From an uncultured Planctomycetales bacterium (GTDB lineage: Bacteria > Omnitrophota > Gorgyraeia > Gygaellales > Profunditerraquicolaceae), in contig CAZRVK010000002.1 of the NCBI GenBank assembly GCA_964603585.1, positions 179,513 to 243,512 of the forward strand: a DNA stretch of 64,000 nt, read 5' to 3'. Every line of letters starts with the position of its first letter. The stretch's first letter is position 1. The translations under genes and the position numbers were made by a program. Shown here piece after piece: positions 11,524 to 64,000 of this stretch. The notes below the pieces were generated by a model. The model was given only the letters and a program-made list of their open reading frames with translations. It was not told where the DNA came from and searched no databases.

Positions 11524-14500
11524 TTAACGACAATTCATTGAAAGAGGCACCCTGCAGCAGAGGATCTTTATATATCGAAAAACCCGCGCAGCACCCTTAT
11601 AGTGGCATAATACCGCTTTGACCGTTCGATTATACTCATCTAAAGCCAGCGTAGCTTTATCCTCACCTAATTGATGTTTACTGTAATTAGCCTCTTCGAA
11701 CCTTTCCGTAAAGCGAATAAAGGTTCTATCGGAAATACCATACTTATTCTCGGCTATCACGGCTAATTCTAACGGGGGGATGAATTCCAGGTTCTGCGGG
11801 CTTAAAATCGAGAGTAATTCATTTAAATTACGGTATAAGGCAATGATAAATCCTCTGGGATCACTGTGCATCAGGCGGCATAACCGCTGCTTGGCCTGTT
11901 CAGCGATTAAATACAATACGAGAAAAGCTGCTGACGCCGCCAAAAGAATTGATCCGAATACCTTGGCCGCAATAACAAAGATCCACTCCCAGGTAACAAT
12001 AACCGAAACCTTAACCGGCAGGCTTTCTACCCCGCCGTATTTCGCATTAACTGCAGTTTCTCCGATAATTAAAGGATTGATCTTGCCTTTTTCTATTTTT
12101 AGTATTCTGGGCTTAGAAACATGCCAAAGGACTTCTCCGGTCAAATCCAAGAGGCTGTCATCGCTATAATATCCTTCTGCCTTTAGAGTTAATTGATCGA
12201 ACATGGATATCCTTGGATCAGACGGGGACAGCAAAATAGAAATAAGTTTGGCGCTATCTACTGTAACTATAGCGTTATTGCTCTTTATCCCGGAGATCTG
12301 GGCATAAATACCGGCGCTTCCCACAGAAACGCCCTGGACTTGCCCATGTTTAGAAACTCTTGCGACCGACTCATCCTGGCTCACCCACTCTACTGCCGAG
12401 GTAAGGTCGATCTCGGTTTTATCGCTAAGCACCCCCTGGGCTATTATTTCTCCGCTGGCGCCAAAAGCAAAATTCTGGGATTCCGGGATTATTTTTATTG
12501 CCACCAGGTTCTTCTCTATTGCCTCTACCCCCTCGTCTCTTTCAGCTTGTTCATTTTTGGCACCTTCTTTTGAAAAATTCTCTTCCTGCTCTAAATTAAA
12601 ACCTATCGCCAAATACCCGCTCAACTCCTTTAGACTATTTGCCAGGTTATCTCCTAATTGCCGGCTGATAACACCCTGTTCCTGCAATTTATCTATCCTG
12701 CCTTCTATGGAACCAGTCTCTTCTTCCAGGCCTTTTAAACTGTCAGTTTGGCTTAATTTATCAATTCTACCCGCAAGTTCTTTTTTGGTTTCCGGATTAG
12801 AACTATCCAGGTGTTTCTTAATTTCATCTTTTTTCTCTCCAACCGCACGTTGAGCCTCGATTTTAACCAACTCTAATTCTACGTTCTGCATCTTTTGTTT
12901 CTTTACATCGTCACCGCTGTCCCTTTTATCTGTAATCTCATCACCGCCAGTCCCTTTACCGCCGCCACTGCCTTCTGCACCTCGAATTTGCCCAAAACCA
13001 TCGCTAACACCGTCGCTCTTACTGCCTATGGAAATAGATTCAGCACCTGCGGCGGTGTTCAAACCCTCTCTAGCGGATTGACCTTGGGGATCAATCTTTG
13101 CCGTTAGATCATCTGTTTTCCTGGACAAATCCTGTTTTTCCAAACGCTCGGCCATTGCCTTCTCTTCATGGCCAGAAGATGCCTGGCCTGCGGCATTGTC
13201 TTTATTTGCCCCTCCTTGAACACCCGCTTCAGACAGATTATCCGATCCAGCCCCGGCAGATATTCCTTTATTGGACTGGCGAGCTCCCGTTTCTTGCTTG
13301 CGCCCGCCTTTTTTGCCTGAACTTCTGGCAACCAAATCTTTTTTTGCATCATACAATTTCTCTAACTCAATGATGATCAGGCGTTGCCCGGAAGAAGAAG
13401 CGCTTGAACGAAAATCATCTATCTTTTTTTGCAGTAAATCCAGGTCTTGCATGTTTTCCGCGCGTTTTATACCTTCCAATGCCTGGTTAAAATCTTCCCT
13501 GGCAAAAGCTTCTTGCAAATCACTCTTTACCATTAAACTATCCAGCTGTTGAGAAATAACCTGCTCATCTAAATGAACATCCAAATCTGCCGCCCCCTGT
13601 TCAGGCAGGTGTCGGCCTTCTATTTCTACATTTTCCAGTTCCTCCAGGATAGCCTTAAGATCATCGTGGTTATCTTCCAATTTAGCCGCACTTACCGAGT
13701 ATTCGAGCTCGTCGATCGTCTTTTCCGCCTGATCCAGCTTAACTTTGGAGAGATTTGTTTTCTCCAAACCTTTCTTCAGCGTGCGGTTTTTTTGCGCCAT
13801 AAGCATTCCCACTTTTAAAGAAAGCACTTCCTCCATATCCTCAATTATGTTTTTTTGCGCACCAACCGCTAATCCAGCCAAACTTTCCATTTGTTCCTGC
13901 ACCTGTTTTAAGCTGGAGGATTTACTCATTTTTTCAATATTGCCAAGGGCATGAAATAAAGGATCCCGCATCTCTTTGCCTTCTTCGGAGATCTTTTGCT
14001 TCAACTCTTTCATTTTCTTTAAATAAAGCTGGTAAAGTTTCCACTCTTTAAGAGAAACCACGGATGTTTTTTCTTCTTTTTTCAATTCCTTGTCCAATGA
14101 AGATCCCATGATCTCCGTATATGCGTTTTTTGCGTTTTTAACTGCCCCCTCCGAAGTATCGCTTTTCTGGATCCTACTTGTAGACTGATATATAAGGACC
14201 CGGTCTTTTATATTCAGGGGGTTGCTTTTTAGAACCTCCATTGCCTTGTTACGGGATATTTGCATATTTAAGAGCGCTTTGGTCTCCAGATAATCATTAG
14301 CTAAGGTTAAAATCTGCTCTGTATCATTTTTCTCCAGCCCCGGGCCTGGCTCCTTTAAAAGACTGACCAGCCCCTGATGCGCCGATTCCACCTCCACAGT
14401 ATCCGCGGAGTTTTTTATCAGGCGCTCTATAAAGCTCAATACCTGCCGGGCTGTTTCTACGGAGTCGGTCTTATTGATCAGGACGGTCGTTTCATTTTGC

Positions 14501-15192
14501 AGGCCATCCTGCAGCCGGTAGTAATTCTCTTCCAGTTTTTCAAAAGTATCTTCCATATCTGTTGCGCCAAGGCGGAAAATGCCTCCGCCAGATCTATAGA
14601 CCAGAGATTTGGTTAAAGCCATACAAGAAATGATCACTCCGCAGATAAAAATTGCCACGGCAATGATAGTGGAATACTCCCGGGGCATAGAACCACCGAT
14701 CGGAGAATGCGCAAGCCGGTAAAACTTTATTTTTAGAATAGCAAAACAGATGACAATGAATAAAAATGCTTTAATAACCACTGCCGGGGAGAAATCCTTG
14801 ATAAATACCGGCAAGCACCAGAACAAAAGTACAGAGATAACCTGGAGGTAAGAGAGTGTCCGTTGGCGAAATGCGCTAACGGCCAAGATGGTCGCCAGCA
14901 AAAATCCTCCTTTTACGCAAAGGAGCATAATGTTCTTATAGAGAAAAGCCGAATTCAAGAAGGTATGCACAAACCAGCCAAAAACCGCCATCACGGCAAC
15001 GTTCATGATTATATTGCGGACAGGAGAAACCTGGTCTTGGGTATAAAATGCAGCGACAAAAGCGCTAATGATACAGAGCGCAAAGAATAATCCGCTGTAG
15101 GGCAAGGCCGAGCCATATAATAATATTAAAATAAGAAAAAGCCCGAGGGTAAAAATCAGTTCCATATACCGATAGGCATTGTTCTCTTTCAT
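11524..15192 (-). CDS. giant membrane protein with a DUF4129-like C-terminal domain (TgpA-like architecture without a transglutaminase core)
   Basis: 1222 aa. The N-terminus has ~6 hydrophobic helices. It is followed by a long E/K/Q-rich coiled-coil and a G/S-rich low-complexity stretch, then a Big_2-like Ig region. After a late TM helix the C-terminus reads ALYRNLNELLSIL..FIRFTERFEEANY.. (DUF4129-like). Last gene of the MoxR-DUF58 operon. Confidence 0.5.
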   Translation of the reverse strand: MKENNAYRYMELIFTLGLFLILILLYGSALPYSGLFFALCIISAFVAAFYTQDQVSPVRNIIMNVAVMAVFGWFVHTFLNSAFLYKNIMLLCVKGGFLLATILAVSAFRQRTLSYLQVISVLLFWCLPVFIKDFSPAVVIKAFLFIVICFAILKIKFYRLAHSPIGGSMPREYSTIIAVAIFICGVIISCMALTKSLVYRSGGGIFRLGATDMEDTFEKLEENYYRLQDGLQNETTVLINKTDSVETARQVLSFIERLIKNSADTVEVESAHQGLVSLLKEPGPGLEKNDTEQILTLANDYLETKALLNMQISRNKAMEVLKSNPLNIKDRVLIYQSTSRIQKSDTSEGAVKNAKNAYTEIMGSSLDKELKKEEKTSVVSLKEWKLYQLYLKKMKELKQKISEEGKEMRDPLFHALGNIEKMSKSSSLKQVQEQMESLAGLAVGAQKNIIEDMEEVLSLKVGMLMAQKNRTLKKGLEKTNLSKVKLDQAEKTIDELEYSVSAAKLEDNHDDLKAILEELENVEIEGRHLPEQGAADLDVHLDEQVISQQLDSLMVKSDLQEAFAREDFNQALEGIKRAENMQDLDLLQKKIDDFRSSASSSGQRLIIIELEKLYDAKKDLVARSSGKKGGRKQETGARQSNKGISAGAGSDNLSEAGVQGGANKDNAAGQASSGHEEKAMAERLEKQDLSRKTDDLTAKIDPQGQSAREGLNTAAGAESISIGSKSDGVSDGFGQIRGAEGSGGGKGTGGDEITDKRDSGDDVKKQKMQNVELELVKIEAQRAVGEKKDEIKKHLDSSNPETKKELAGRIDKLSQTDSLKGLEEETGSIEGRIDKLQEQGVISRQLGDNLANSLKELSGYLAIGFNLEQEENFSKEGAKNEQAERDEGVEAIEKNLVAIKIIPESQNFAFGASGEIIAQGVLSDKTEIDLTSAVEWVSQDESVARVSKHGQVQGVSVGSAGIYAQISGIKSNNAIVTVDSAKLISILLSPSDPRISMFDQLTLKAEGYYSDDSLLDLTGEVLWHVSKPRILKIEKGKINPLIIGETAVNAKYGGVESLPVKVSVIVTWEWIFVIAAKVFGSILLAASAAFLVLYLIAEQAKQRLCRLMHSDPRGFIIALYRNLNELLSILSPQNLEFIPPLELAVIAENKYGISDRTFIRFTERFEEANYSKHQLGEDKATLALDEYNRTVKAVLCHYKGAARVFRYIKILCCRVPLSMNCR

Positions 15193-29177: not shown

Positions 29178-29219
29178 GGCATACTCCTTCTACAAAGGCT
29201 TTTACACAACTATAATTCC

Positions 29220-30041
29220 TTATACGATCTCTATTTCTAAAATATTGTCGATACGAAAAGTTCTCTCATCATTCTTCAGGGAACAAAACCCCACTAAATA
29301 ATTGTGCTGATTCTCCCGGCGGATCACTTTTGGTTTTACTTCCCTTAAGGTAACCTCTGCCGTGGATGAAGATAAATACCGGATTTTAAGACCAGCACCC
29401 AGATCAATTGCTTCTTGGATTTGAAACAACTTTTGGGCCAATTCGCCACCTAAAAAATGCTTATTCACGGAAAACAAACTGGCGTAATGTCGGTAATCCA
29501 TAACGCCTTGGGATTTTAATTTATTTTTTAGCTTCTGAAATACCGCAAAGGTGAGCTCCACGTCAGAAAAAGCCCGATGCTCCTGTTTACATTTTATTCC
29601 CAGATGTTCGGCTACAAACCAAAGGGCATACCGATCCAATCCCGGCAACAACCTTCTGGCCATTTTCAGGACATCCAAAACCATTATCGTTTTATCCAGA
29701 TCCTGATTGAGCAGTCTCAATTCATTCTGCAAAAACTCCAGATCAAACCCGGCGTTATACGAACACAAACAGCTGCCTTTAATGAACTCCATAAACTCTG
29801 CAGCCACTTTTCTCATCCCGGGTGCGTTTTTTAGCATTTCCTGGGATATCTGGTTAACCTTAAACGCTCCAGGAGATACCTCTCTGTCCGGATTGACCAA
29901 TGTCTGGAAGGTATTGATCAAAGAAACGCCTTTAAACCGCATCCCGGCGATCTCTACGATCCGGTCTCCGGCTTGCGGTGAAAGCCCGGTGGTTTCGGTA
30001 TCGAAGATCGTCAATTCTATTTCATCGATTTCCTTGTTCAT
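29220..30041 (-). CDS. DnaQ-like DEDDh 3'-5' exonuclease fused to a C-terminal WYL domain
   Basis: Exo I IFDTETTGL, Exo II YNAGFDLEFL, Exo III EHRAFSDVELT. The C-terminal ~100 aa contain YLVGFCSLKNDERTFRIDNI (WYL / R.FR.D(R/N)I signature). Confidence 0.6.
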   Translation of the reverse strand: MNKEIDEIELTIFDTETTGLSPQAGDRIVEIAGMRFKGVSLINTFQTLVNPDREVSPGAFKVNQISQEMLKNAPGMRKVAAEFMEFIKGSCLCSYNAGFDLEFLQNELRLLNQDLDKTIMVLDVLKMARRLLPGLDRYALWFVAEHLGIKCKQEHRAFSDVELTFAVFQKLKNKLKSQGVMDYRHYASLFSVNKHFLGGELAQKLFQIQEAIDLGAGLKIRYLSSSTAEVTLREVKPKVIRRENQHNYLVGFCSLKNDERTFRIDNILEIEIV

Positions 30042-30177
30042 ATCAGCAATGTTTTCCTCTTAATAATGCCATTAAGAGTAATCGTGCCGCCGAAGTGGCA
30101 AGCGGCGACGCAGTCTCAAAAACAAGATTACTCCGCCCTTAGGGGCTCGCAATTACTGTTAAGACGGTCCCGGGAGG

Positions 30178-31068
30178 TTATTTTTTAACGATATACGCCG
30201 GAATCAGTTTTACCGGATGATAAGATAATTTTACCTGCTTTAAATTCTCCAGTCCGGAATCATCCATAACATTTATATATTTATACCCTTTAAGCTCGGA
30301 GCAAAAGGCCTGAAAAATAAACTGCGCCAGCCCTTTAATACTTAAATCGGTAATTTCATAGAGTATGCAGAAAGTATCTGCATTTATAGGGTACCCGAAT
30401 GTAAACCCCTTTATTCGTCCGGACACCTCAACAACCCTGCCGATACAATCCAGTCTTTCATACCGGTCCAGCATAATCCCAAAAGCATTTTGGCTATCAT
30501 CGATCAAGCCTTGATATACCGGATCATCGCTTTTAGGCAAACGCTGCTTTGCCCAGAGGCCAAAAAGGTCCCGGCATGCAGCGTCATCATTTTTTACAAA
30601 AGGCTTGAACTTATATGCATAGTGTTTGCAAAAATAATTACGGCTGGCGCGCTTGGATTTAAAAGCGTTGCCTTTTAGCCGTACCAAATCCGTCCGCAAG
30701 CAAATATAATCCGATGATTTTGGGAATGATTTATATCCTAACCTATGATAAAGATCCAGATCTTTTTTTTCAAGATTCTCGATGCGTGAGACTTCCGGAT
30801 TGGGATTCAAATCATTCATTAATGCAAAAACCTTAACGATTGTTTCTTCTGTTATCCTTACCCCTAAGGGGGGCAGATACAGAAAAATCCCCATTTTATC
30901 CCTAAAGAAAACACAAAGACAGTCCTTGTCTATCGTCCAGTTTACTTCAAATAATCCCTTCCAGATATAAATATTAGCAAAGGCATAAACCGATAACTCG
31001 CGGCATGATATATTCAAGTATCGCTGAAAGATCTTACGGTCAGCAATAGATAGTTTCTTTAGTTTCAT
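30178..31068 (-). CDS. DUF2156-family protein (MprF C-terminal aminoacyl-tRNA-dependent transferase-like domain)
   Basis: 296 aa, soluble. Resembles standalone homologues of the lysyl-phosphatidylglycerol synthase C-domain (GNAT-like tandem fold). Moderate certainty. Confidence 0.45.
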   Translation of the reverse strand: MKLKKLSIADRKIFQRYLNISCRELSVYAFANIYIWKGLFEVNWTIDKDCLCVFFRDKMGIFLYLPPLGVRITEETIVKVFALMNDLNPNPEVSRIENLEKKDLDLYHRLGYKSFPKSSDYICLRTDLVRLKGNAFKSKRASRNYFCKHYAYKFKPFVKNDDAACRDLFGLWAKQRLPKSDDPVYQGLIDDSQNAFGIMLDRYERLDCIGRVVEVSGRIKGFTFGYPINADTFCILYEITDLSIKGLAQFIFQAFCSELKGYKYINVMDDSGLENLKQVKLSYHPVKLIPAYIVKK

Positions 31069-31071
31069 GCA

Positions 31072-31563
31072 TTAAATCTTTAATTCCATGATATCCAGGA
31101 CTTCTTCATATGCCTGAATAATGTGTGGATTGTCTTTTAATATGCTTAACTGTGCCGGTGAATTCAGGCAAGCACTTAAATATTCGACATACTCTTTAAA
31201 CTCTTTATCTTTTATCTTTTTTTGTATATATGGACAGTTTAAGTCTACGGTAAGAATGACCTTCTTATTGCGCATACCGATAAGGAATGGATAAAGCTGG
31301 CATTCAAAGGGGCGCCGGGCATAAATCTTACACTTATTATCCTGTAAACTCAAAAGAGGGCAAAGGAAACCTTCTTGCGAAGGATCTTTGACCAGTCCAA
31401 TCCGTTTGTCTAACGAGATCGTGACTGACGCCAAATCATTATCCAGTAATCCCTGGATCTCCTCATCCAGAAGACAAGGGGACCAGAGGGAATTCTCTTC
31501 TTTAAACCGGCAACATCCCCGGCATTCCAGGCAAACTTCCTGCGGAACAAACTGTTTTATCAT
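31072..31563 (-). CDS. YkgJ-family zinc/iron-chelating (CxxCxxCC) protein
   Basis: N-terminal CLECRGCC motif plus further C..C pairs, as in UPF0153/YkgJ. 163 aa. Confidence 0.65.
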   Translation of the reverse strand: MIKQFVPQEVCLECRGCCRFKEENSLWSPCLLDEEIQGLLDNDLASVTISLDKRIGLVKDPSQEGFLCPLLSLQDNKCKIYARRPFECQLYPFLIGMRNKKVILTVDLNCPYIQKKIKDKEFKEYVEYLSACLNSPAQLSILKDNPHIIQAYEEVLDIMELKI

Positions 31564-31880
31564 TTAACCGTACTTCCTAATTTAATTTGTTTTACTGGGC
31601 TAACTATGGCAAGCCCAGTATCATCAGAAGCCGCCAAAAGCATACCCTGGCTTTCCACTCCTCGCAGCACTGCCGGTTCTAAATTATCCACCACTATTAC
31701 TTGTTTACCGATCAAATCTTCTTTAGAATAAGCGCCTCTTATACCGGCCACGATCTGCTTGATTCTATCACCCAGATCAACCTTAATAACATACAGCCGA
31801 TCTGCATTGGGATGTTCCGTAACTTCTTTTATTTCAGCAACTTTAAGCTCTATTTTCCTAAAATCATCGATGGTAATCAT
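31560..31880 (-). CDS. CsaA/EMAP-like tRNA-binding domain protein
   Basis: FRKIELKVAEI..EHPNADRLYVIKVDLG..QIVAGI...LIGKQVIVVDNLEP..LRGVESQGMLLA matches the OB-fold tRNA-binding domain of CsaA / MetRS C-terminus. Stop overlaps the YkgJ start (ATGA). Confidence 0.8.
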   Translation of the reverse strand: MITIDDFRKIELKVAEIKEVTEHPNADRLYVIKVDLGDRIKQIVAGIRGAYSKEDLIGKQVIVVDNLEPAVLRGVESQGMLLAASDDTGLAIVSPVKQIKLGSTVK

Positions 31881-32263: not shown

Positions 32264-32339
32264 CGGGGCCGACGAGATTTGAACTCGCGATCTTCGCCGT
32301 GACAGGGCGACGTGTTAAACCAGACTACACTACGACCCC
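32264..32339 (-). tRNA. tRNA-Asp (anticodon GUC)
   Basis: Reverse complement GGGGTCGTAGTGTAGTCTGGTTTAACACGTCGCCCTGTCACGGCGAAGATCGCGAGTTCAAATCTCGTCGGCCCCG folds as a cloverleaf: 7-bp acceptor, anticodon loop CTGTCAC, T-arm GTTCAAATC. Confidence 0.85.
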
Positions 32340-32346
32340 AGGACTA

Positions 32347-32384
32347 CAGATTCAAGATTAAAGGACCAAGACTCAAGAATGAAG
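32347..32384 (+). repeat. heptamer tandem array CAGATT-CAAGATT-AAAG... (left arm of an inverted pair)
   Basis: Plus strand reads CAGATTCAAGATTAAAGGACCAAGACTCAAGAATGAAG. It is the inverted counterpart of the array at 32756-32820 and overlaps the stop of the four-helix-bundle gene. Confidence 0.7.
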
Positions 32385-32735
32385 TGATTTAATTATTGTA
32401 CACAAAATTTTAATAACTTCAATGTTTTCTTTTTCTATTCCGAGCAAATCCGACTTATCAAAACAAATCACTTTTGAATCTTTTAATATCTGCAACCAAT
32501 TGTCAAACTCATAACTTGAGTTTAACGCGATCTGAAAATATGTTTCTTTTTGTTTCGCGTTATGAGAATCGTTACCTTCTGCGACATTGGCCCCTACCGA
32601 AGTAGCTGCGCCGAAACATTGATCAATAATTCTCGAATATTTTGGATTGCTTTTATCCAGTAAATTTATGATTAAAAGCGCATTTTTATGTGCCTTTTGC
32701 CAAACGATAAGTCTTCTATAACTCGGCTCACCCAT
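32373..32735 (-). CDS. four-helix-bundle protein ('23S rRNA intervening-sequence protein' family)
   Basis: LIVWQKAHKNALLIINLL ... QCFGAATSVGANVAEGNDSHNAKQKETYFQIALNSSYEFDNWLQILKD matches the TIGR02436/PF05635 pattern (VWQ..., NIAEG). Confidence 0.8.
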   Translation of the reverse strand: MGEPSYRRLIVWQKAHKNALLIINLLDKSNPKYSRIIDQCFGAATSVGANVAEGNDSHNAKQKETYFQIALNSSYEFDNWLQILKDSKVICFDKSDLLGIEKENIEVIKILCTIIKSLHS

Positions 32736-32826: not shown

Positions 32827-32900
32827 TGGGCGGTAGAGGACTCGGACCCCTGACCTTCTCTGTGTAAGAGAGACGTTCTAACCAGCTGAACTAACCGCCC
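32827..32900 (-). tRNA. tRNA-Val (anticodon UAC)
   Basis: Reverse complement GGGCGGTTAGTTCAGCTGGTTAGAACGTCTCTCTTACACAGAGAAGGTCAGGGGTCCGAGTCCTCTACCGCCCA. Perfect 7-bp acceptor, anticodon loop CTTACAC. Confidence 0.85.
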
Positions 32901-48236: not shown

Positions 48237-49313
48237 TTATTCAATAAATGATTTAAAGAAATTCTCAAAGACCCCATTTGCTTCTTCCGGACCGGCCCAG
48301 GCCGGAAAATATTGTATCCCCATAAATCTTAATTGCCTGCTTTCCAGCCCTTCGATCGTTTGGTCATTTAAATTAAGCAAGGAGGCCTTGGCTTGTTTAC
48401 TCCTGCTTAAAGATTCTTCATCGACTACCCAGGAGTGATTCTGTGCCGTGATCTCTCCCTTGAAACAACCCGGTTTATGCACCGGGTAATTCAGCCCGTG
48501 ATGCCCGGATTTCATTTTATTTATTTTCACGCCTATGGCTTTAGCTAAAACCTGATGCCCGCAGCAAATCCCCAGCATCGGGACTTTTCCTAATAGAATC
48601 CTGATGTTTTCTACAACCGTATTTAATCCGGGGTCTTCTTCTAACCCTCCAGCAAGGATCAACCCGTCCGGGCGGTATCGCATGATTTCTTTTGGAGTGG
48701 TATCATGAGGCAAAAGAACCACCCGGGCTTTAAGCCTTTCGATCTGCCGGATCAAGCTGTTTTGCACTCCTAAATCAAGGACGGCGATCTTATATTTACC
48801 GTTAGCTTTTCCTAAACGCTGCACAGTATTCACAGAGATCTTCGCCAACAGGCTGTTTTTGTTTTTTCCTCGATAATCTCCTATTTTAAGCAACAGTTCT
48901 TTGGGGTCAAAACAAAGAGTGGAAATAATCCCTAACATTGAACCCTTGGCGCGTAAATGCACGGATAAAGAACGGGTGTCTACTTTTGAAATGGCCAACA
49001 GGTTATTTCCTTTAACAAAATCTTCCAGGCTTTCCTTAGCCTGCCAATTAGAATAAATCCGGCTTTTCTCTTTAACTACCAAGCCTTGCGCCCACACACC
49101 TTTAGATTCATTAAACTTTGGGGACACTCCATAATTACCGATCAAGGGGTAAGTCAATACCAGAATTTTACCGGCGTTGGCGGGATCGGTCAAGATCTCC
49201 TGATACCCTACCACGGAAGTATTACAAATCACTTCTGCAACTCTTTCATCCTGCGTCCCAAAAGATTCTCCCGTAAAAACTGTTCCGTCCTCCAACAGCA
49301 AAATCGCTTTCAT
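48237..49313 (-). CDS. carA: carbamoyl-phosphate synthase small subunit (glutamine amidotransferase)
   Basis: 358 aa with class I glutamine amidotransferase motif GICCGHQVLA. Directly precedes carB. Confidence 0.9.
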   Translation of the reverse strand: MKAILLLEDGTVFTGESFGTQDERVAEVICNTSVVGYQEILTDPANAGKILVLTYPLIGNYGVSPKFNESKGVWAQGLVVKEKSRIYSNWQAKESLEDFVKGNNLLAISKVDTRSLSVHLRAKGSMLGIISTLCFDPKELLLKIGDYRGKNKNSLLAKISVNTVQRLGKANGKYKIAVLDLGVQNSLIRQIERLKARVVLLPHDTTPKEIMRYRPDGLILAGGLEEDPGLNTVVENIRILLGKVPMLGICCGHQVLAKAIGVKINKMKSGHHGLNYPVHKPGCFKGEITAQNHSWVVDEESLSRSKQAKASLLNLNDQTIEGLESRQLRFMGIQYFPAWAGPEEANGVFENFFKSFIE

Positions 49314-49789
49314 CCATTACTCCTCTTTAGGATTTCCTTTGTTTTTACTATAACTTCATCTACTGTTTTAACATTGATAACGCCTGGGATATCCCAGGAA
49401 TTCAAGCTGATCACCGGGATCTTGAATTGCAAAGCATAGGCTATTTCAGAAAGGGTTCCTTCTTTGCCTTGCAAAGCAATCACAACATCCGCACTTTTAA
49501 CTACTAAAATATTCCTGGCAAATCCCAGACCTGTAGGAATTACGATATCAATGAATGGATTTGCTGCTTGCTTTTCATATCCTGGAATAATTCCTATGGT
49601 CTGTCCACCTCCGGACTTAAAACCGCTTGAAACCGCCTCCATTACTCCACTTAATCCCCCGGAAACGAGAATTTCAGCCACTTTAGCTAATTTTTTGCCT
49701 AATTCATGCCCTAATCGCTCCACTCCATCTGAACACTCATGCCCCCCAATAATACTTACTACTCGCTTTCTCACATCTCTCCCCATCAT
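49310..49789 (-). CDS. TIGR00725/LOG-like Rossmann-fold nucleotide-binding protein
   Basis: VVSIIGG..., LVSGGLSGVMEAV, ...VIALQGKEGTLSEI pattern of the LOG/YvdD-like family. 159 aa. Confidence 0.6.
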   Translation of the reverse strand: MMGRDVRKRVVSIIGGHECSDGVERLGHELGKKLAKVAEILVSGGLSGVMEAVSSGFKSGGGQTIGIIPGYEKQAANPFIDIVIPTGLGFARNILVVKSADVVIALQGKEGTLSEIAYALQFKIPVISLNSWDIPGVINVKTVDEVIVKTKEILKRSNG

Positions 49790-49826: not shown

Positions 49827-49898
49827 TGCGCCTGGACAGAATCGAACTGTCACAACTGGCTCCGGAGGCCAGTGCTCTATCCGTTGAGCTACAGGCGC
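49827..49898 (-). tRNA. tRNA-Arg (anticodon CCG)
   Basis: Reverse complement GCGCCTGTAGCTCAACGGATAGAGCACTGGCCTCCGGAGCCAGTTGTGACAGTTCGATTCTGTCCAGGCGCA. Acceptor GCGCCTG/CAGGCGC, anticodon loop CTCCGGA. Confidence 0.85.
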
Positions 49899-57179: not shown

Positions 57180-59609
57180 CTATTCTTCCTCGGCGATCAC
57201 CGGGGCGACACAAGAAACCCTGTCTTTGTCCTGCAGCTTTATCAACCGCACCCCTTGAGCAGACCTGCCGGTTGTACGTATATCTTTGATCGCACAGCGC
57301 AAGAACATACCGTTTTGCGTAATAACCATCAATTCATCATTATCGCTTACCGCTTTGAGATTAACCGCTGCCCCGTTTTTCTCGGTAACTTTTATATTAA
57401 TGATTCCTTTACCGCCGCGGCTGGTCAAGCGATACTCTTCTATCGGGGTCCTTTTAGCAAAACCAAGCTCGGTGACCGTCAATATAGACGCTTCTTTTTT
57501 AGCCAGCACCATATCGATCACAGCGTCTTTTTTATCCAAGGAAATGGCGCGCACTCCGTGTGCCGCCCGCCCCATATCCCTCACCTTCATCTCCGGGAAA
57601 TGAATCGCTTTTCCCTGCCTGGTGGCAATTAATAACTCCAGGCTACCGTCGGTAAGCTCAACGCCGATCAATTCATCCCCTTTATCCAAAGTGATCCCGA
57701 TAATTCCTGCCTTGCGCGGGTTACCGTAAGCATCCAGCCGGGTCTTCTTAATCTGGCCTTGACGCGTTACCATCACCAAATACTTGTCCGGGGAAAATTC
57801 TTTAACCGGGATGGTAGAGCTTATTTTAGCTCCGGATTCCATTTCTATCAAGTTAATTATTGCCTTGCCTTTAGAAATACGGCTGGCCTGCGGGATCTCA
57901 TAAACTTTAAGCCAATGCACCTGGCCTTTATCCGTAAAAATTAACAGGTAATCCTTGGTAGAAGCGACAAACAGGTGTTCTATAAAGTCCTCATCTTTCA
58001 CCTCCGCCCCGCTGGATCCGGTACCTCCGCGTTTTTGTTTACGATAGGCGCTTACCGGCAGGCGCTTGATATATCCTGCGTGGCTGATAGTTACCACCAC
58101 ATCTTCTTCGGCGATCAGATCCTCAACCTCTAACTCCTCAACCTCTGCAACAATATCCGTACGTCGAGGATCACCATATTTCTCTTTGATCAGCGTCAAT
58201 TCATCTTTTATGATCCCCTCGATCTTTTTTTCGGAAGCCAGTATTGCCCGGCAGGCTTCGATCTTTTTCAAAAGCTCGAGATATTCGGCTTCGATTTTAT
58301 CTCTTTCCAGCGCGGTCAACCGCTGCAGTTGCATCTCCAATATCGCCTGCGCCTGGATCTCTGAAAGTTCGAATTCTTTCATCAACCGCTCTTTGGCATT
58401 CTCGGTATTCTTGGAGGTTTTGATCACTTTGATGATCTGATCGATAAATTTCAAAGCGATCTTCAATCCTTCCAGGATATGCGCCCGCTTAAGAGCTTTA
58501 TCTAATTCGAATTGAGTCCTTCTGCGAATGATCACCTTGCGGTGCATAATATAGGCATCGAGGATCTGCCGCAAATTCAAAACCCGGGGGCGGTTTTCTA
58601 CCAGGGCCAGCATAATGATCCCAAAGGTGCTTTCCAGCTGGGTGTGCTTGAAAAGCTGGTTTAAAATGATCTGTGATTCCACATCCCGTTTCAGCTCAAC
58701 AACAATCCGCATCCCGTCTTTATCCGATTCATCCCGGACATCAGAAATGCCTTCGATCTTTTTTTCATCTACCAGACTGGCGATGTTTTCAATGATCCCG
58801 GATTTCTGCACCTGATAAGGGATTTCCGTGATCACAATAAGATCTTTATTGTTTTTTTGCCGCTCTACCGTTGCCTTGGCCCGTACCGTAAGCTTGCCCC
58901 TGCCCGTCATATAGGCGTCTTTGATCCCACCTTTACCGCAAATTACTCCCCCTGTGGGAAAATCCGGACCCTTGATGTGCTTGATCAAATCCTTGATCTC
59001 TGCGGCAGAATTATCTAAAAGATAAATTATCGCATCCGCCACCTCATTTAAATTGTGCGGGGGGATATTTGTTGCCATGCCTACGGCAATACCACTGGAG
59101 CCATTGACTAAAAGATTTGGCAAGGCCGCCGGTAAAAGCAACGGTTCCTGTAAAGAAGAATCAAAATTAGGCCCGAAGTTTACAGTCTCTTTATCTATAT
59201 CTGTCAGCATTTCATTGGCGATGGCAGAAAGCCTTGCTTCGGTATAACGCATGGCTGCGGCAGAATCCCCGTCGACCGAACCAAAATTACCCTGGCCGTC
59301 GACTAAGGGATACCGCAATGAGAAATCCTGCGCCATTCTGACCAAAGTATCATATACCGCTACATCCCCATGGGGGTGGTACTTACCCAGAACCTCCCCT
59401 ACGATACGGGCACATTTTTTATAAGGCTTGGAGTGGTCAAGATTTAATTCCTGCATCGCATAAAGTATCCTGCGATGCACGGGTTTTAAACCGTCCCGCA
59501 CATCAGGCAGGGCCCGGCCAACAATGACGCTCATCGCATAATTAAGATATGCGTCTTTGACCTCATCCTCTATATATATCGGCATGATCTTTTCGTTTCG
59601 CGTATACAT
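57180..59609 (-). CDS. gyrA: DNA gyrase subunit A
   Basis: 809 aa. Active-site region [10 protein letters not shown] with catalytic Tyr, QRDR-like ..[17 protein letters not shown]... C-terminal beta-pinwheel repeats. Confidence 0.95.
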
Positions 59610-59645
59610 TTTTATCTCTTTTTCTGAAAGGTTAAAACCAAACCC

Positions 59646-62365
<2,720 letters not shown>

Positions 62366-62366
62366 A

Positions 62367-63458
62367 TTAACCAAGCCGCATCGGCAGAACAATATAAGTA
62401 TAATCATCCACACGGATAACGCCGGGTTTTTCACTATCCGTCAATTCAAAATTAATCTTTTCTTCCGATAGATTTTTTAAGACATCAATCAGATAATTCG
62501 GATTAAAACCAATAATCATCTCCTTGCCACGGTATTCCACTTTAACCTCTTCCCGTGATTCTCCTATATCCGGAGTGGATTTAGAAACCACCAATTTATC
62601 CTTAAATACTTCCAACTTAACCGCCTGATAATCCGGAGTAGAAAGAAGAGCCGCGCGCTTTACCGCCAAAAGGAATTGTTCCCTCTCAATACTGAATTTA
62701 TTCTCTGAAACTGCGGGAATAACCTGCCTAAAATCCGGGAATTCCCCCTCAATCAGCCGGGAGATCACCACTACTTGACCTAAATCAAAAAGTGCCTGGT
62801 TACTACCCAACAATATTGATAATTCCCCGGAATCTTTTAAGTTCCGGTTTAACTCTTGAATAGTCTTAATAGGTATAATAATATTAACTGCTTTCTCAAA
62901 ACCTTGCTGGATTTTTCTCTCTACAACTGCCAACCTTTTACCATCAGTAGCAACCAGGGTTAAAGTATTTTTTTCGATTTTAAAAAGGATCCCGTTTAAA
63001 ATATACCTAGTCTCATCAAAAGAAACAGCAAAGGCTGTTAACCCTAGCATGGTTTTTAATACCCCTTGGTCCAACTTAATAATTTCTTTATCTTTAAATT
63101 CTGGGAGTTTGGGAAACTCTTCTTTTCCTAACCCCATAATTTTAAATTGACATAATTCTGTTTCAATATTTACCTGATTATTTTTCTTTGTATTAACCAC
63201 TATCTCATTACTGGGTAATTCACGGATAATATCGCTAAACCTTTTAGCGGGAATGGTTATCGCTCCTGTCTCCAGGATATTAACAGGGATTAAACAGGTT
63301 ATACCTATATCTAAATCCGTTGCGGTTAACCTTAATTTATCTTGAAAAGTTTCAATTAATATGTTAGAAAGTATTGGTAATGCTGATTTTGGAGTAATGA
63401 CATTTTGTACTATTTGTATTCCGCCAACTAAAATTTCTTTATCTGCTTTAAACTTCAT
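62367..63458 (-). CDS. dnaN: DNA polymerase III beta sliding clamp
   Basis: 363 aa, three-domain clamp. Begins MKFKADKEILVGGIQIVQNV and shows the typical ..ATDG.RLA.. segments. Confidence 0.9.
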   Translation of the reverse strand: MKFKADKEILVGGIQIVQNVITPKSALPILSNILIETFQDKLRLTATDLDIGITCLIPVNILETGAITIPAKRFSDIIRELPSNEIVVNTKKNNQVNIETELCQFKIMGLGKEEFPKLPEFKDKEIIKLDQGVLKTMLGLTAFAVSFDETRYILNGILFKIEKNTLTLVATDGKRLAVVERKIQQGFEKAVNIIIPIKTIQELNRNLKDSGELSILLGSNQALFDLGQVVVISRLIEGEFPDFRQVIPAVSENKFSIEREQFLLAVKRAALLSTPDYQAVKLEVFKDKLVVSKSTPDIGESREEVKVEYRGKEMIIGFNPNYLIDVLKNLSEEKINFELTDSEKPGVIRVDDYTYIVLPMRLG

Positions 63459-63603
63459 TTTCCCTCCCTATTATTATTAATTAAATGGTATAAAAAAACT
63501 ATATAGTATTGGTAGTAATAGTGGTTTTGTTTCTGTTTAAAAGTTTTTAACCTGTTTAAATAACTATATTTACTTAAGTATTTATTTGTGGATATCTTTG
63601 GTA
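63459..63603. other. AT-rich dnaA-dnaN intergenic region (candidate oriC / DNA-unwinding element)
   Basis: 145 nt at >80% AT. Contains one DnaA-box-like 9-mer (TGTGGATAT at ~63589-63597; complement ATATCCACA matches TTATCCACA in 8 of 9 positions). Confidence 0.35.
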
Positions 63604-64000
63604 TTACTGCCGAAGTCCTTGAATAACCCGGGTAATCCGGTTTTTTAAAACCTCGTCTTTTTCCAAACCCTCTTTTATTTTATTATATGCGTGTAAAACA
63701 GTTGTGTGGTCCTTTCCTCCAAAAAAAGCCCCTATTTCCGGCAAAGAAAGATCGGTTAATTCCCGGCTGATATACATGGCTATCTGTCTGGGAAAAACCA
63801 CTGTTTTATTGCGGCGTTTGTTTTTCAGGTCCTGTAAGGATATTCCAAATTCTTCCGCAATACAACGCTGTATAAAATCAACCGTGATTAATTTTTTTGG
63901 TTCTCGCAACAGGTCTTTTAACACATCTTTCGCCAGATCTAAATTAATAACCTTTTCTTCTAATAAGGAATACGCGATAATACGGACTAATGCCCCTTCC
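63604..64000 (-). CDS. dnaA: chromosomal replication initiator DnaA (C-terminal part; N-terminus beyond window end)
   Basis: C-terminal DNA-binding domain ..KDHTTVLHAYNKIKEGLEKDEVLKNRITRVIQGL and upstream ..VFPRQIAMYISRELTDLSLPEIGAFFGG.. The reading frame stays open to position 64000. Confidence 0.9.
   Translation of the reverse strand, partial: EGALVRIIAYSLLEEKVINLDLAKDVLKDLLREPKKLITVDFIQRCIAEEFGISLQDLKNKRRNKTVVFPRQIAMYISRELTDLSLPEIGAFFGGKDHTTVLHAYNKIKEGLEKDEVLKNRITRVIQGLRQ

Follow-up and report, generated by a model that had tools for sequence, protein, structure and literature searches.

What a 3'-5' exonuclease gains from carrying a WYL domain, and whether such a gene belongs to a defence system, are questions raised by one gene (positions 29220-30041) in a 64,000-nucleotide stretch of an Omnitrophota contig (CAZRVK010000002.1; the whole stretch is hereafter referred to as the window). 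Its product joins a DnaQ-like exonuclease of the DEDDh type to a C-terminal WYL domain, and is called Exo-WYL below. A preliminary description, made from the sequence alone, had proposed this fusion and had interpreted it as a ligand-switched nuclease, a candidate effector in defence or repair. The fusion is confirmed by Pfam, by a structural model and by fold matches. The gene belongs to the conserved core genome of Omnitrophota and occupies the same place in each of the Omnitrophota loci fetched, and I put at about an even chance the reading that its product is a housekeeping DnaQ-family exonuclease, with the WYL domain as a built-in module for binding single-stranded DNA (ssDNA). Exo-WYL does not appear to be a defence effector.

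In a hidden Markov model scan, the Pfam families RNase_T (PF00929; residues 12–168, E=1e-34, 120.9 bits for a cutoff of 24) and WYL (PF13280; residues 205–272, E=9.8e-12, 45.1 bits for a cutoff of 21.8) both match above their gathering scores, and the WYL profile is thus detected. Together with RNase_H_2, these are the only Pfam domains in the full protein. The NCBIfam model TIGR00573 (dnaq family domain) is also above its cutoff (119.3 bits against 71.5). The gene product belongs to the DEDDh superfamily and to the WYL domain family. The three Exo motifs, already listed in the preliminary description, can be read directly in the DNA, and the catalytic residues D14, E16, D100, H155 and D160 are invariant in two alignments, of 40 close and 17 distant homologues. 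They make up an intact two-metal DEDDh active site.

A profile search against the PDB identified the T. maritima PolC-type exonuclease 2p1j as the best relative of the exonuclease domain (E=1e-36). The PolC exonuclease domain (E=4.5e-30), E. coli epsilon (E=2.6e-22) and the exonuclease domains of DinG and Cas2-DEDDh (E about 1e-15 to 1e-16) were also found, and S. thermophilus DnaQ is likewise among the best relatives. Exo-WYL has the same fold and the same DEDDh residues of Exo I, II and III as DnaQ/epsilon (1j53/2gui), 2p1j and PolC (9qpc). Identity to the DnaQ/epsilon and PolC exonucleases is about 24–35%, with a root-mean-square deviation (RMSD) of about 2.1–2.5 Å, compared to 6.7–13.6 Å for 2p1j. 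The fold match to RNase T is weaker (Foldseek E about 1e-8, against about 1e-12 for DNA-acting DnaQ-type exonucleases), and none of the 25 best NCBIfam matches is an RNase T or Orn model.

The C-terminal 95 residues were modelled separately, and the model was compared with the PDB. The barrel has a predicted local distance difference test score (pLDDT) above 84 in this fragment, and the top 30 Foldseek matches are all WYL domains (TMq 0.62–0.71). The best of them, PafBC (6sj9), BrxR (7qfz), DriD (7tzv) and CapW (9c5g), superpose with an RMSD of 1.2–1.9 Å over about 70 columns, at 19–34% identity (34% and 1.6 Å for PafBC), and have a basic ligand channel in common with Exo-WYL; the matched structures of DriD and CapW are ssDNA-bound forms. 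The WYL models of PADLOC also match (E=1.7e-15), and the string YLVGF is encoded at 29286-29300 on the minus strand.

By profile, the closest solved structure for the C-terminal region is that of the DdPif1 helicase (8bnv, from Deferribacter), matched over residues 179–271, which take in the long helix and the barrel, followed by PafBC. The HMMER alignment to DdPif1 places R233, K256, R260, R263 and N266 opposite R464, R491, R495, R498 and R501, the equivalent basic residues of that helicase (PMC9964779), and C253 opposite C488. In the Pif1 helicase of Thermotoga elfii (TePif1), the isolated WYL domain binds ssDNA, while deletion of the domain, or mutation of R470/C494/R501/R504, reduces ssDNA binding about 15-fold and impairs unwinding (bioRxiv 10.1101/163188). 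The correspondence between TePif1 and DdPif1 residues is drawn here, as PMC9964779 gives no explicit statement of it, and R233, C253, R260 and R263 are accordingly taken as putative equivalents of these four TePif1 residues. All but one are invariant in the 40 close homologues, R263 being present in 38; the counts for the 17 distant homologues are 15 for R233, 16 for C253, 15 for R260 and 12 for R263, and position 256 is a lysine or an arginine in the homologue alignments. Within the close family, mean pairwise identity reaches 72.5% in the WYL barrel, against 68.5% in the exonuclease domain. By this conservation, the WYL ligand channel is intact and has been maintained by purifying selection. 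Conserved basic residues and a cysteine have been proposed to line the WYL ligand groove (Makarova et al., 2014; PMC4012209), and the barrel of Exo-WYL possesses both.

ssDNA is the characterised ligand of DriD and PafBC (PMC9186387, PMC11804915), as well as of CapW according to the title of entry 9c5g, and one WYL domain senses c-di-GMP (PMC11880434). Since ssDNA is both the substrate of an exonuclease and a known WYL ligand, a clamp acting in cis is the simplest mechanism. The WYL channel would hold the ssDNA strand 5' of the 3' end seated in the active site, and this may raise affinity, processivity or the preference for 3' single-stranded tails; by analogy, the WYL domain of TePif1 would be the precedent for such an effect. 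The enzyme would trim DNA 3' ends in replication or repair, possibly as a trans-acting proofreader, or as an ssDNA exonuclease resembling ExoX or ExoI. Trimming of DNA is favoured because the exonuclease domain is closest to DNA-acting enzymes, and because of the setting of a distant fusion on a high-GC viral contig (L118, 4247-9602; IMG/VR UViG_3300020202_000104). That protein (262 residues, 24% identity; RNase_T 6.5e-18, WYL 5e-6) is encoded in a DNA-metabolism module, flanked by genes for a phage exonuclease (phrog_10477) and a DNA methyltransferase, and its best PHROG is annotated as 'DNA polymerase exonuclease subunit'. As the best guess for the ligand is a nucleic acid, most probably ssDNA, the repair-type role suggested in the preliminary description is still plausible; its defence part is not retained, for reasons given further below.

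The full-length AlphaFold2 model, built on 40 homologues, has a pLDDT of 91.5 and a predicted TM-score (pTM) of 0.89. It consists of the exonuclease fold, a short helix (residues 183–190), a long helix (194–214) and a five-stranded barrel (218–272), and the model shows the exonuclease and WYL domains in a confidently predicted, fixed arrangement. A fold search with the whole model identified no PDB entry containing both domains. The short helix has a pLDDT of about 95 in the full-length model and of about 51 in the C-terminal part alone; because it is ordered only in the former, this suggests that it packs on the exonuclease domain, and it is probably a capping helix of that domain. Within it, F190 is invariant and L189 nearly so in the close family, at a position resembling that of the QTSMAF motif of E. 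coli epsilon. The L189/F190 segment is kept in exonuclease-only relatives, but is not conserved across the wider fusion family. I considered it as a clamp-binding motif and rejected it, since it lies in a confidently folded helix that is disordered without the exonuclease domain.

A word-indexed search returned 2626 homologues. The best 120 of these are 269–298 residues long and share the same architecture, at 58–67% identity to the window protein, with the exception of P0001 at 95%. Their named sources are all Candidatus Omnitrophota, and they appear in databases as "exonuclease domain-containing protein" or "WYL domain-containing protein", with JGI using "epsilon" or "PolC-type". End-to-end alignment with the window protein was obtained for 39 homologues of about 273 residues. 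In a scan of species-representative genomes, full-length matches (down to 51% identity) were found only in metagenome-assembled genomes (MAGs) of Omnitrophota, or in Planctomycetales-labelled MAGs with the same locus, while in other phyla only the exonuclease domain was matched. When 1.84 billion cluster representatives were searched exhaustively with a profile, 728 matched at E<1e-30, and more than 100 of them are full-length fusions of about 270–290 residues. Named examples of the more distant fusions belong to Elusimicrobiota and to Ca. Viridilinea, a member of Chloroflexota. Among viral sequences there was no close homologue, and the best viral-contig match, at 31% identity, is confined to the exonuclease domain; a viral origin was rejected, as the viral-contig matches are either distant or exonuclease-only.

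The WYL domain is not present throughout this family. In one Omnitrophota MAG (locus L016, 1619-2200), the positional orthologue is a 193-residue protein that lacks it, ending just after the capping helix, and the next gene begins 25 nucleotides further on. Other exonuclease-only close relatives, of 190–220 residues, are found in Omnitrophota and in candidate division NPL-UPA2. A distant Omnitrophota clade (L169-L171; P0317) encodes proteins of 272–273 residues in which the WYL domain is below Pfam detection. Because the domain is missing in the first case, and its channel residues in the distant clade, an accessory module fits better than an obligatory gate.

The Pif1-WYL helicases (TePif1, and DdPif1/SsPif1, 8bnv/8bns) offer the nearest parallel, as both they and Exo-WYL combine a DNA-processing enzyme with a C-terminal module made of a helix and a WYL domain. 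In both families the WYL domain is present or absent depending on the lineage, as has been described for Pif1 (PMC9964779). They differ in the catalytic partner, which in Pif1 is a superfamily 1B helicase whose WYL domain contacts the ssDNA on its 5' side. PafBC, DriD, CapW and BrxR, in contrast, possess an N-terminal helix-turn-helix (HTH) and a C-terminal WCX domain and act on transcription, while Exo-WYL lacks both and ends at the barrel. Cas2-DEDDh (8fy9) and S. aureus DinG (8zef) are similar to Exo-WYL in that a DnaQ-like exonuclease is joined to another module that handles nucleic acids; however, the partners are Cas2 and a superfamily 2 helicase, and the context is CRISPR adaptation. 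The same two-domain combination was listed by Makarova et al. (2014) as 'WYL + 3'->5' exoRNase', catalogued only, within a defence-oriented survey (PMC4012209), and this entry is most probably the Exo-WYL family or a relative of it. The architecture is therefore already known, having been catalogued in 2014, and both domains are recognised in public annotation. The literature search turned up neither experimental nor dedicated computational work on a DEDDh-WYL enzyme, and no paper linking Omnitrophota with DnaQ. Exo-WYL is neither an HTH-WYL-WCX regulator nor a defence system, and it is not demonstrably epsilon.

If the ssDNA clamp in cis is correct, Exo-WYL would be the second case, after Pif1-WYL, of a WYL domain that serves a DNA enzyme as an accessory for substrate binding, and would provide a simple system for studying how WYL occupancy affects catalysis. 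In a bolder version, Omnitrophota and some Elusimicrobiota and Chloroflexota would use Exo-WYL as their replicative or repair proofreader, with a new coupling logic in which ssDNA recruits or activates it through the WYL channel and no C-terminal peptide tethers it to the polymerase. I regard this version as distinctly unlikely; if true, Exo-WYL would be the first case in which a WYL sensor directly controls an enzyme and not a transcription factor. The question bears on which protein proofreads replication in Omnitrophota, although the practical impact is modest unless a proofreading or ssDNA-gating role is demonstrated.

The closest rival to the clamp reading is that Exo-WYL is the epsilon-like proofreading subunit of the replicase in Omnitrophota. 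The WYL domain would then stand in for the C-terminal alpha-binding tail known from proteobacteria, and would either hold template or primer ssDNA or dock on the polymerase. The TIGR00573 match and the PolC and epsilon exonucleases as best relatives are both consistent with it, as is the JGI naming of members as epsilon or PolC-type. There is one copy of the gene per locus in all Omnitrophota loci fetched, and in the window it lies about 33 kb from dnaA/dnaN and gyrBA, co-oriented with replication. However, every equivalog model for epsilon, PolC and DinG in NCBIfam is far below its cutoff (TIGR01406, 117.5 against 222.7; NF004316, 116.3 against 196; NF004964, 102.8 against 236). Unlike epsilon and PolC, Exo-WYL has neither an alpha-binding C-terminal peptide nor a PHP-domain insertion, its C-terminus being the folded WYL domain, and the only candidate for a clamp-binding string is L189/F190, in a folded helix and not conserved in the wider family. 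The preliminary description had reasoned that fusion homologues restricted to the vicinity of DNA polymerase III (Pol III) genes would indicate a plain proofreader; none of the loci examined, read with up to about 10 kb of flank each, has a Pol III gene next to Exo-WYL. No second DnaQ-like open reading frame (ORF) is present in the 378 kb of the window and loci combined, which is too little sequence to decide. On balance, the epsilon reading is doubtful.

The gene neighbourhood raises a different alternative. In the window, tRNA_bind, CxxCxxCC and LPG_synthase_C (DUF2156) precede Exo-WYL in this order, and after it come genes for a DUF3857/transglutaminase/TPR protein, a PilZ-N protein, an HhH-GPD glycosylase and hexokinase; the wider window includes glmS, pyrimidine-biosynthesis genes, carAB and a V-type ATPase operon. 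The four-gene block is kept wherever the upstream flank is present (L001/L002, L004-L007, L009-L014), is partly visible in L008, L015 and L016, and is not visible in L003. Throughout the close loci L001-L016, genes of the block are 0–8 nucleotides apart or overlap, and gene content on the 3' side of the block varies, with pabB/pabC or hyp genes inserted and the DUF3857 gene sometimes lost. In L001, L003 and L004, for example, a pabB-like gene (Chorismate_bind), an aminotransferase class IV gene and sometimes hypF/C/D lie between Exo-WYL and the DUF3857 gene, where the window lineage has only a 42-nucleotide gap (29178-29219). In the distant Omnitrophota clade (33% identity), tRNA_bind and YjbQ come before Exo, with AsnC, aminotransferase, DUF1805 and DUF3857 following in turn. 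The Chloroflexota and Elusimicrobiota fusions have neighbours unrelated to the Omnitrophota ones, which are also missing around the distant member in L172. Coordinates of the main features are given in Table 1.

Table 1. Features of the Exo-WYL gene, its upstream neighbours and the right end of the window (positions in the window).
Feature	Position	Strand	Details and basis
Complete coding sequence, DEDDh exonuclease-WYL fusion	29220..30041	-	273 residues plus stop, ATG start, TAA stop; ORF list
DnaQ-like DEDDh 3'-5' exonuclease domain, residues 8-176	29514..30020	-	PF00929, TIGR00573, PDB relatives
Exo I motif FDTETTGL (D14, E16)	29982..30005	-	Read from DNA
Exo II motif YNAGFD (D100)	29742..29759	-	Read from DNA
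Exo III motif HRAFSD (H155, D160), 'h' subtype	29562..29579	-	Read from DNA
Connector, residues 177-216	29394..29513	-	Helix 183-190 with conserved L189/F190, then helix 194-214 into the barrel; AlphaFold2 model
WYL SH3-like beta-barrel, residues 217-272	29226..29393	-	Basic channel R233, C253, K256, R260, R263; PF13280, Foldseek
Intergenic spacer 5' of the gene, 136 nucleotides	30042..30177	-	GC-rich hairpins; 8-bp hairpin over AAGAGG ribosome-binding site
Three upstream genes	30178..31880	-	tRNA_bind 31560-31880, CxxCxxCC 31072-31563, LPG_synthase_C/DUF2156 30178-31068; Pfam
gyrA	57180-59609	-	
gyrB	59646-62081	-	
DciA-family gene	62084-62434	-	
dnaN	62367-63458	-	
dnaA C-terminus, runs off the window	63604-63924	-	

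Several observations weigh against the clamp reading. The gene context holds no direct link to replication or repair, save for the HhH-GPD glycosylase three genes downstream, and the persistent tRNA_bind neighbour, together with DUF2156, hints at a role in RNA or tRNA metabolism. In addition, the distant Omnitrophota clade retains the C-terminal domain without the basic channel (R233 is changed to E, and C253 and R260 are replaced); the domain must therefore do something there other than canonical ligand binding, and the WYL domain may have a second, structural role.

Taken further, the second of these points leads to an exoribonuclease, similar to RNase T, that would process tRNA or other stable RNA at the 3' end or take part in its turnover, with the Sm-like WYL barrel binding single-stranded RNA (ssRNA). 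A stand-alone tRNA_bind gene is found one to three genes upstream in the Omnitrophota loci, distant clade included, and DUF2156/LPG_synthase_C is directly upstream in the close clade. The latter is an aminoacyl-tRNA-dependent transferase domain. Conservation of the upstream block of tRNA_bind, CxxCxxCC (YkgJ-like) and soluble DUF2156 genes in the close Omnitrophota loci suggests an aminoacyl-tRNA-related function for the block. The fold matches also include the WYL1 structure 6oaw, a Cas-related protein known to bind ssRNA. The fusion partner is a '3'->5' exoRNase' in the list of Makarova et al. (2014; PMC4012209), and one member is named '3'-5' exoribonuclease' by NCBI. However, likeness in both sequence and fold is highest to the DNA-acting DnaQ, PolC, DinG and Cas2-DEDDh, and synteny within one phylum may be mere inheritance, the members from Chloroflexota, Elusimicrobiota and L172 being without these neighbours. 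An exoribonuclease is therefore unlikely.

The interpretation closest to that of the preliminary description is a ligand-gated nuclease, kept off until the WYL domain binds ssDNA or a nucleotide second messenger, and acting as a DNA-damage or anti-phage effector. The channel is intact in the window protein, and the WYL domains of DriD, PafBC and CapW are allosteric ssDNA sensors (PMC9186387, PMC11804915; PDB 9c5g), with c-di-GMP sensed in one other case (PMC11880434). One distant member also lies in a suggestive setting: in L172 (6001-10309), a 294-residue Exo-WYL (P0383) overlaps a downstream ARPP-1 gene (PF20208), which is followed by an 866-residue fusion of a protein kinase and a UvrD helicase. 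This neighbourhood looks like a conflict system, unlike the housekeeping context of the window.

In Omnitrophota, by contrast, the orthologues lie in a conserved synteny of housekeeping genes, and neither a defence gene nor a Pol III gene adjoins Exo-WYL in the window or in the fetched loci; homologues in defence islands, which the preliminary description had suggested looking for, were not found among these loci. PADLOC returned generic DEDDh and WYL accessory models and a match to the exonuclease domain of PDC-S48, with no system-specific defence match. As these matches are at the domain level only, and the neighbourhood is of the housekeeping type, I rejected classification as a defence system, and the proposal of a defence effector is not upheld. 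The proposed ligand switch is unproven: the likeliest ligand, ssDNA, is also the substrate, the L016 orthologue lacks the WYL domain, and the distant clade lacks the channel residues. Pfam detects no HTH or WCX module in the protein. I know of no precedent for a WYL domain gating an enzyme directly, and overall this reading is very unlikely. A WYL domain is nowadays mostly taken as a marker of phage defence or of DNA-damage regulation; since one is fixed on a core-genome exonuclease across a candidate phylum, its presence alone should not be scored as a defence signal.

Finally, a WYL domain that is mainly an Sm-like module for protein-protein contacts or oligomerisation, and not a nucleic-acid binder, would account for the retention of the domain after loss of the basic channel in the distant clade, and agrees with the toroidal WYL multimers proposed by analogy to other Sm-like barrels (Makarova et al., 2014; PMC4012209), but it is highly improbable given that the channel residues are invariant or nearly so in the close clade, and that the TePif1 WYL domain has no role in oligomerisation (bioRxiv 10.1101/163188).

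The preliminary description had also attributed to the gene a structured leader of its own, and had placed it apart from the flanking operons. This is only weakly true, and of the window lineage, in that a 136-nucleotide gap precedes the gene (and one of 42 nucleotides follows it) and the spacer has a weak predicted fold (z-score -2.0, with 6 of 200 shuffles folding equally well). It does not extend to the family, as the remaining orthologous loci have no such spacer and the gene there directly adjoins or overlaps those next to it. It is partly shared only with L086, whose protein is 95% identical: the gap there is 99 nucleotides, and the hairpins carry indels, with one of them deleted. The spacer has no Rfam match at the gathering threshold or at E≤1, contains no terminator-like site, and does not recur elsewhere in the window or in the fetched loci. 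A riboswitch or other known RNA was rejected on the basis of the missing Rfam match, the weak fold score and the lack of recurrence. Because the genes abut in other relatives, the spacer is a lineage-specific feature, and not a conserved regulatory element.

A few further features of the window were recorded. Its right end (57180-63924) is the chromosomal origin region, and all substantial genes of the 64 kb are on the minus strand, co-oriented with replication. Two tRNA genes (32264-32339 and 32827-32900) flank a 23S_rRNA_IVP four-helix-bundle gene (32373-32735), in the interval from the tRNA_bind block to the V-ATPase operon. A 1222-residue ORF at 11524-15192, upstream of DUF58-type genes, has one weak Big_2 match and is otherwise unannotated. 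Directly upstream of carA and carB, and adjoining a tRNA gene (49827-49898), is a gene for a protein of the SLOG cluster4 (LDcluster4) family (49310-49789).

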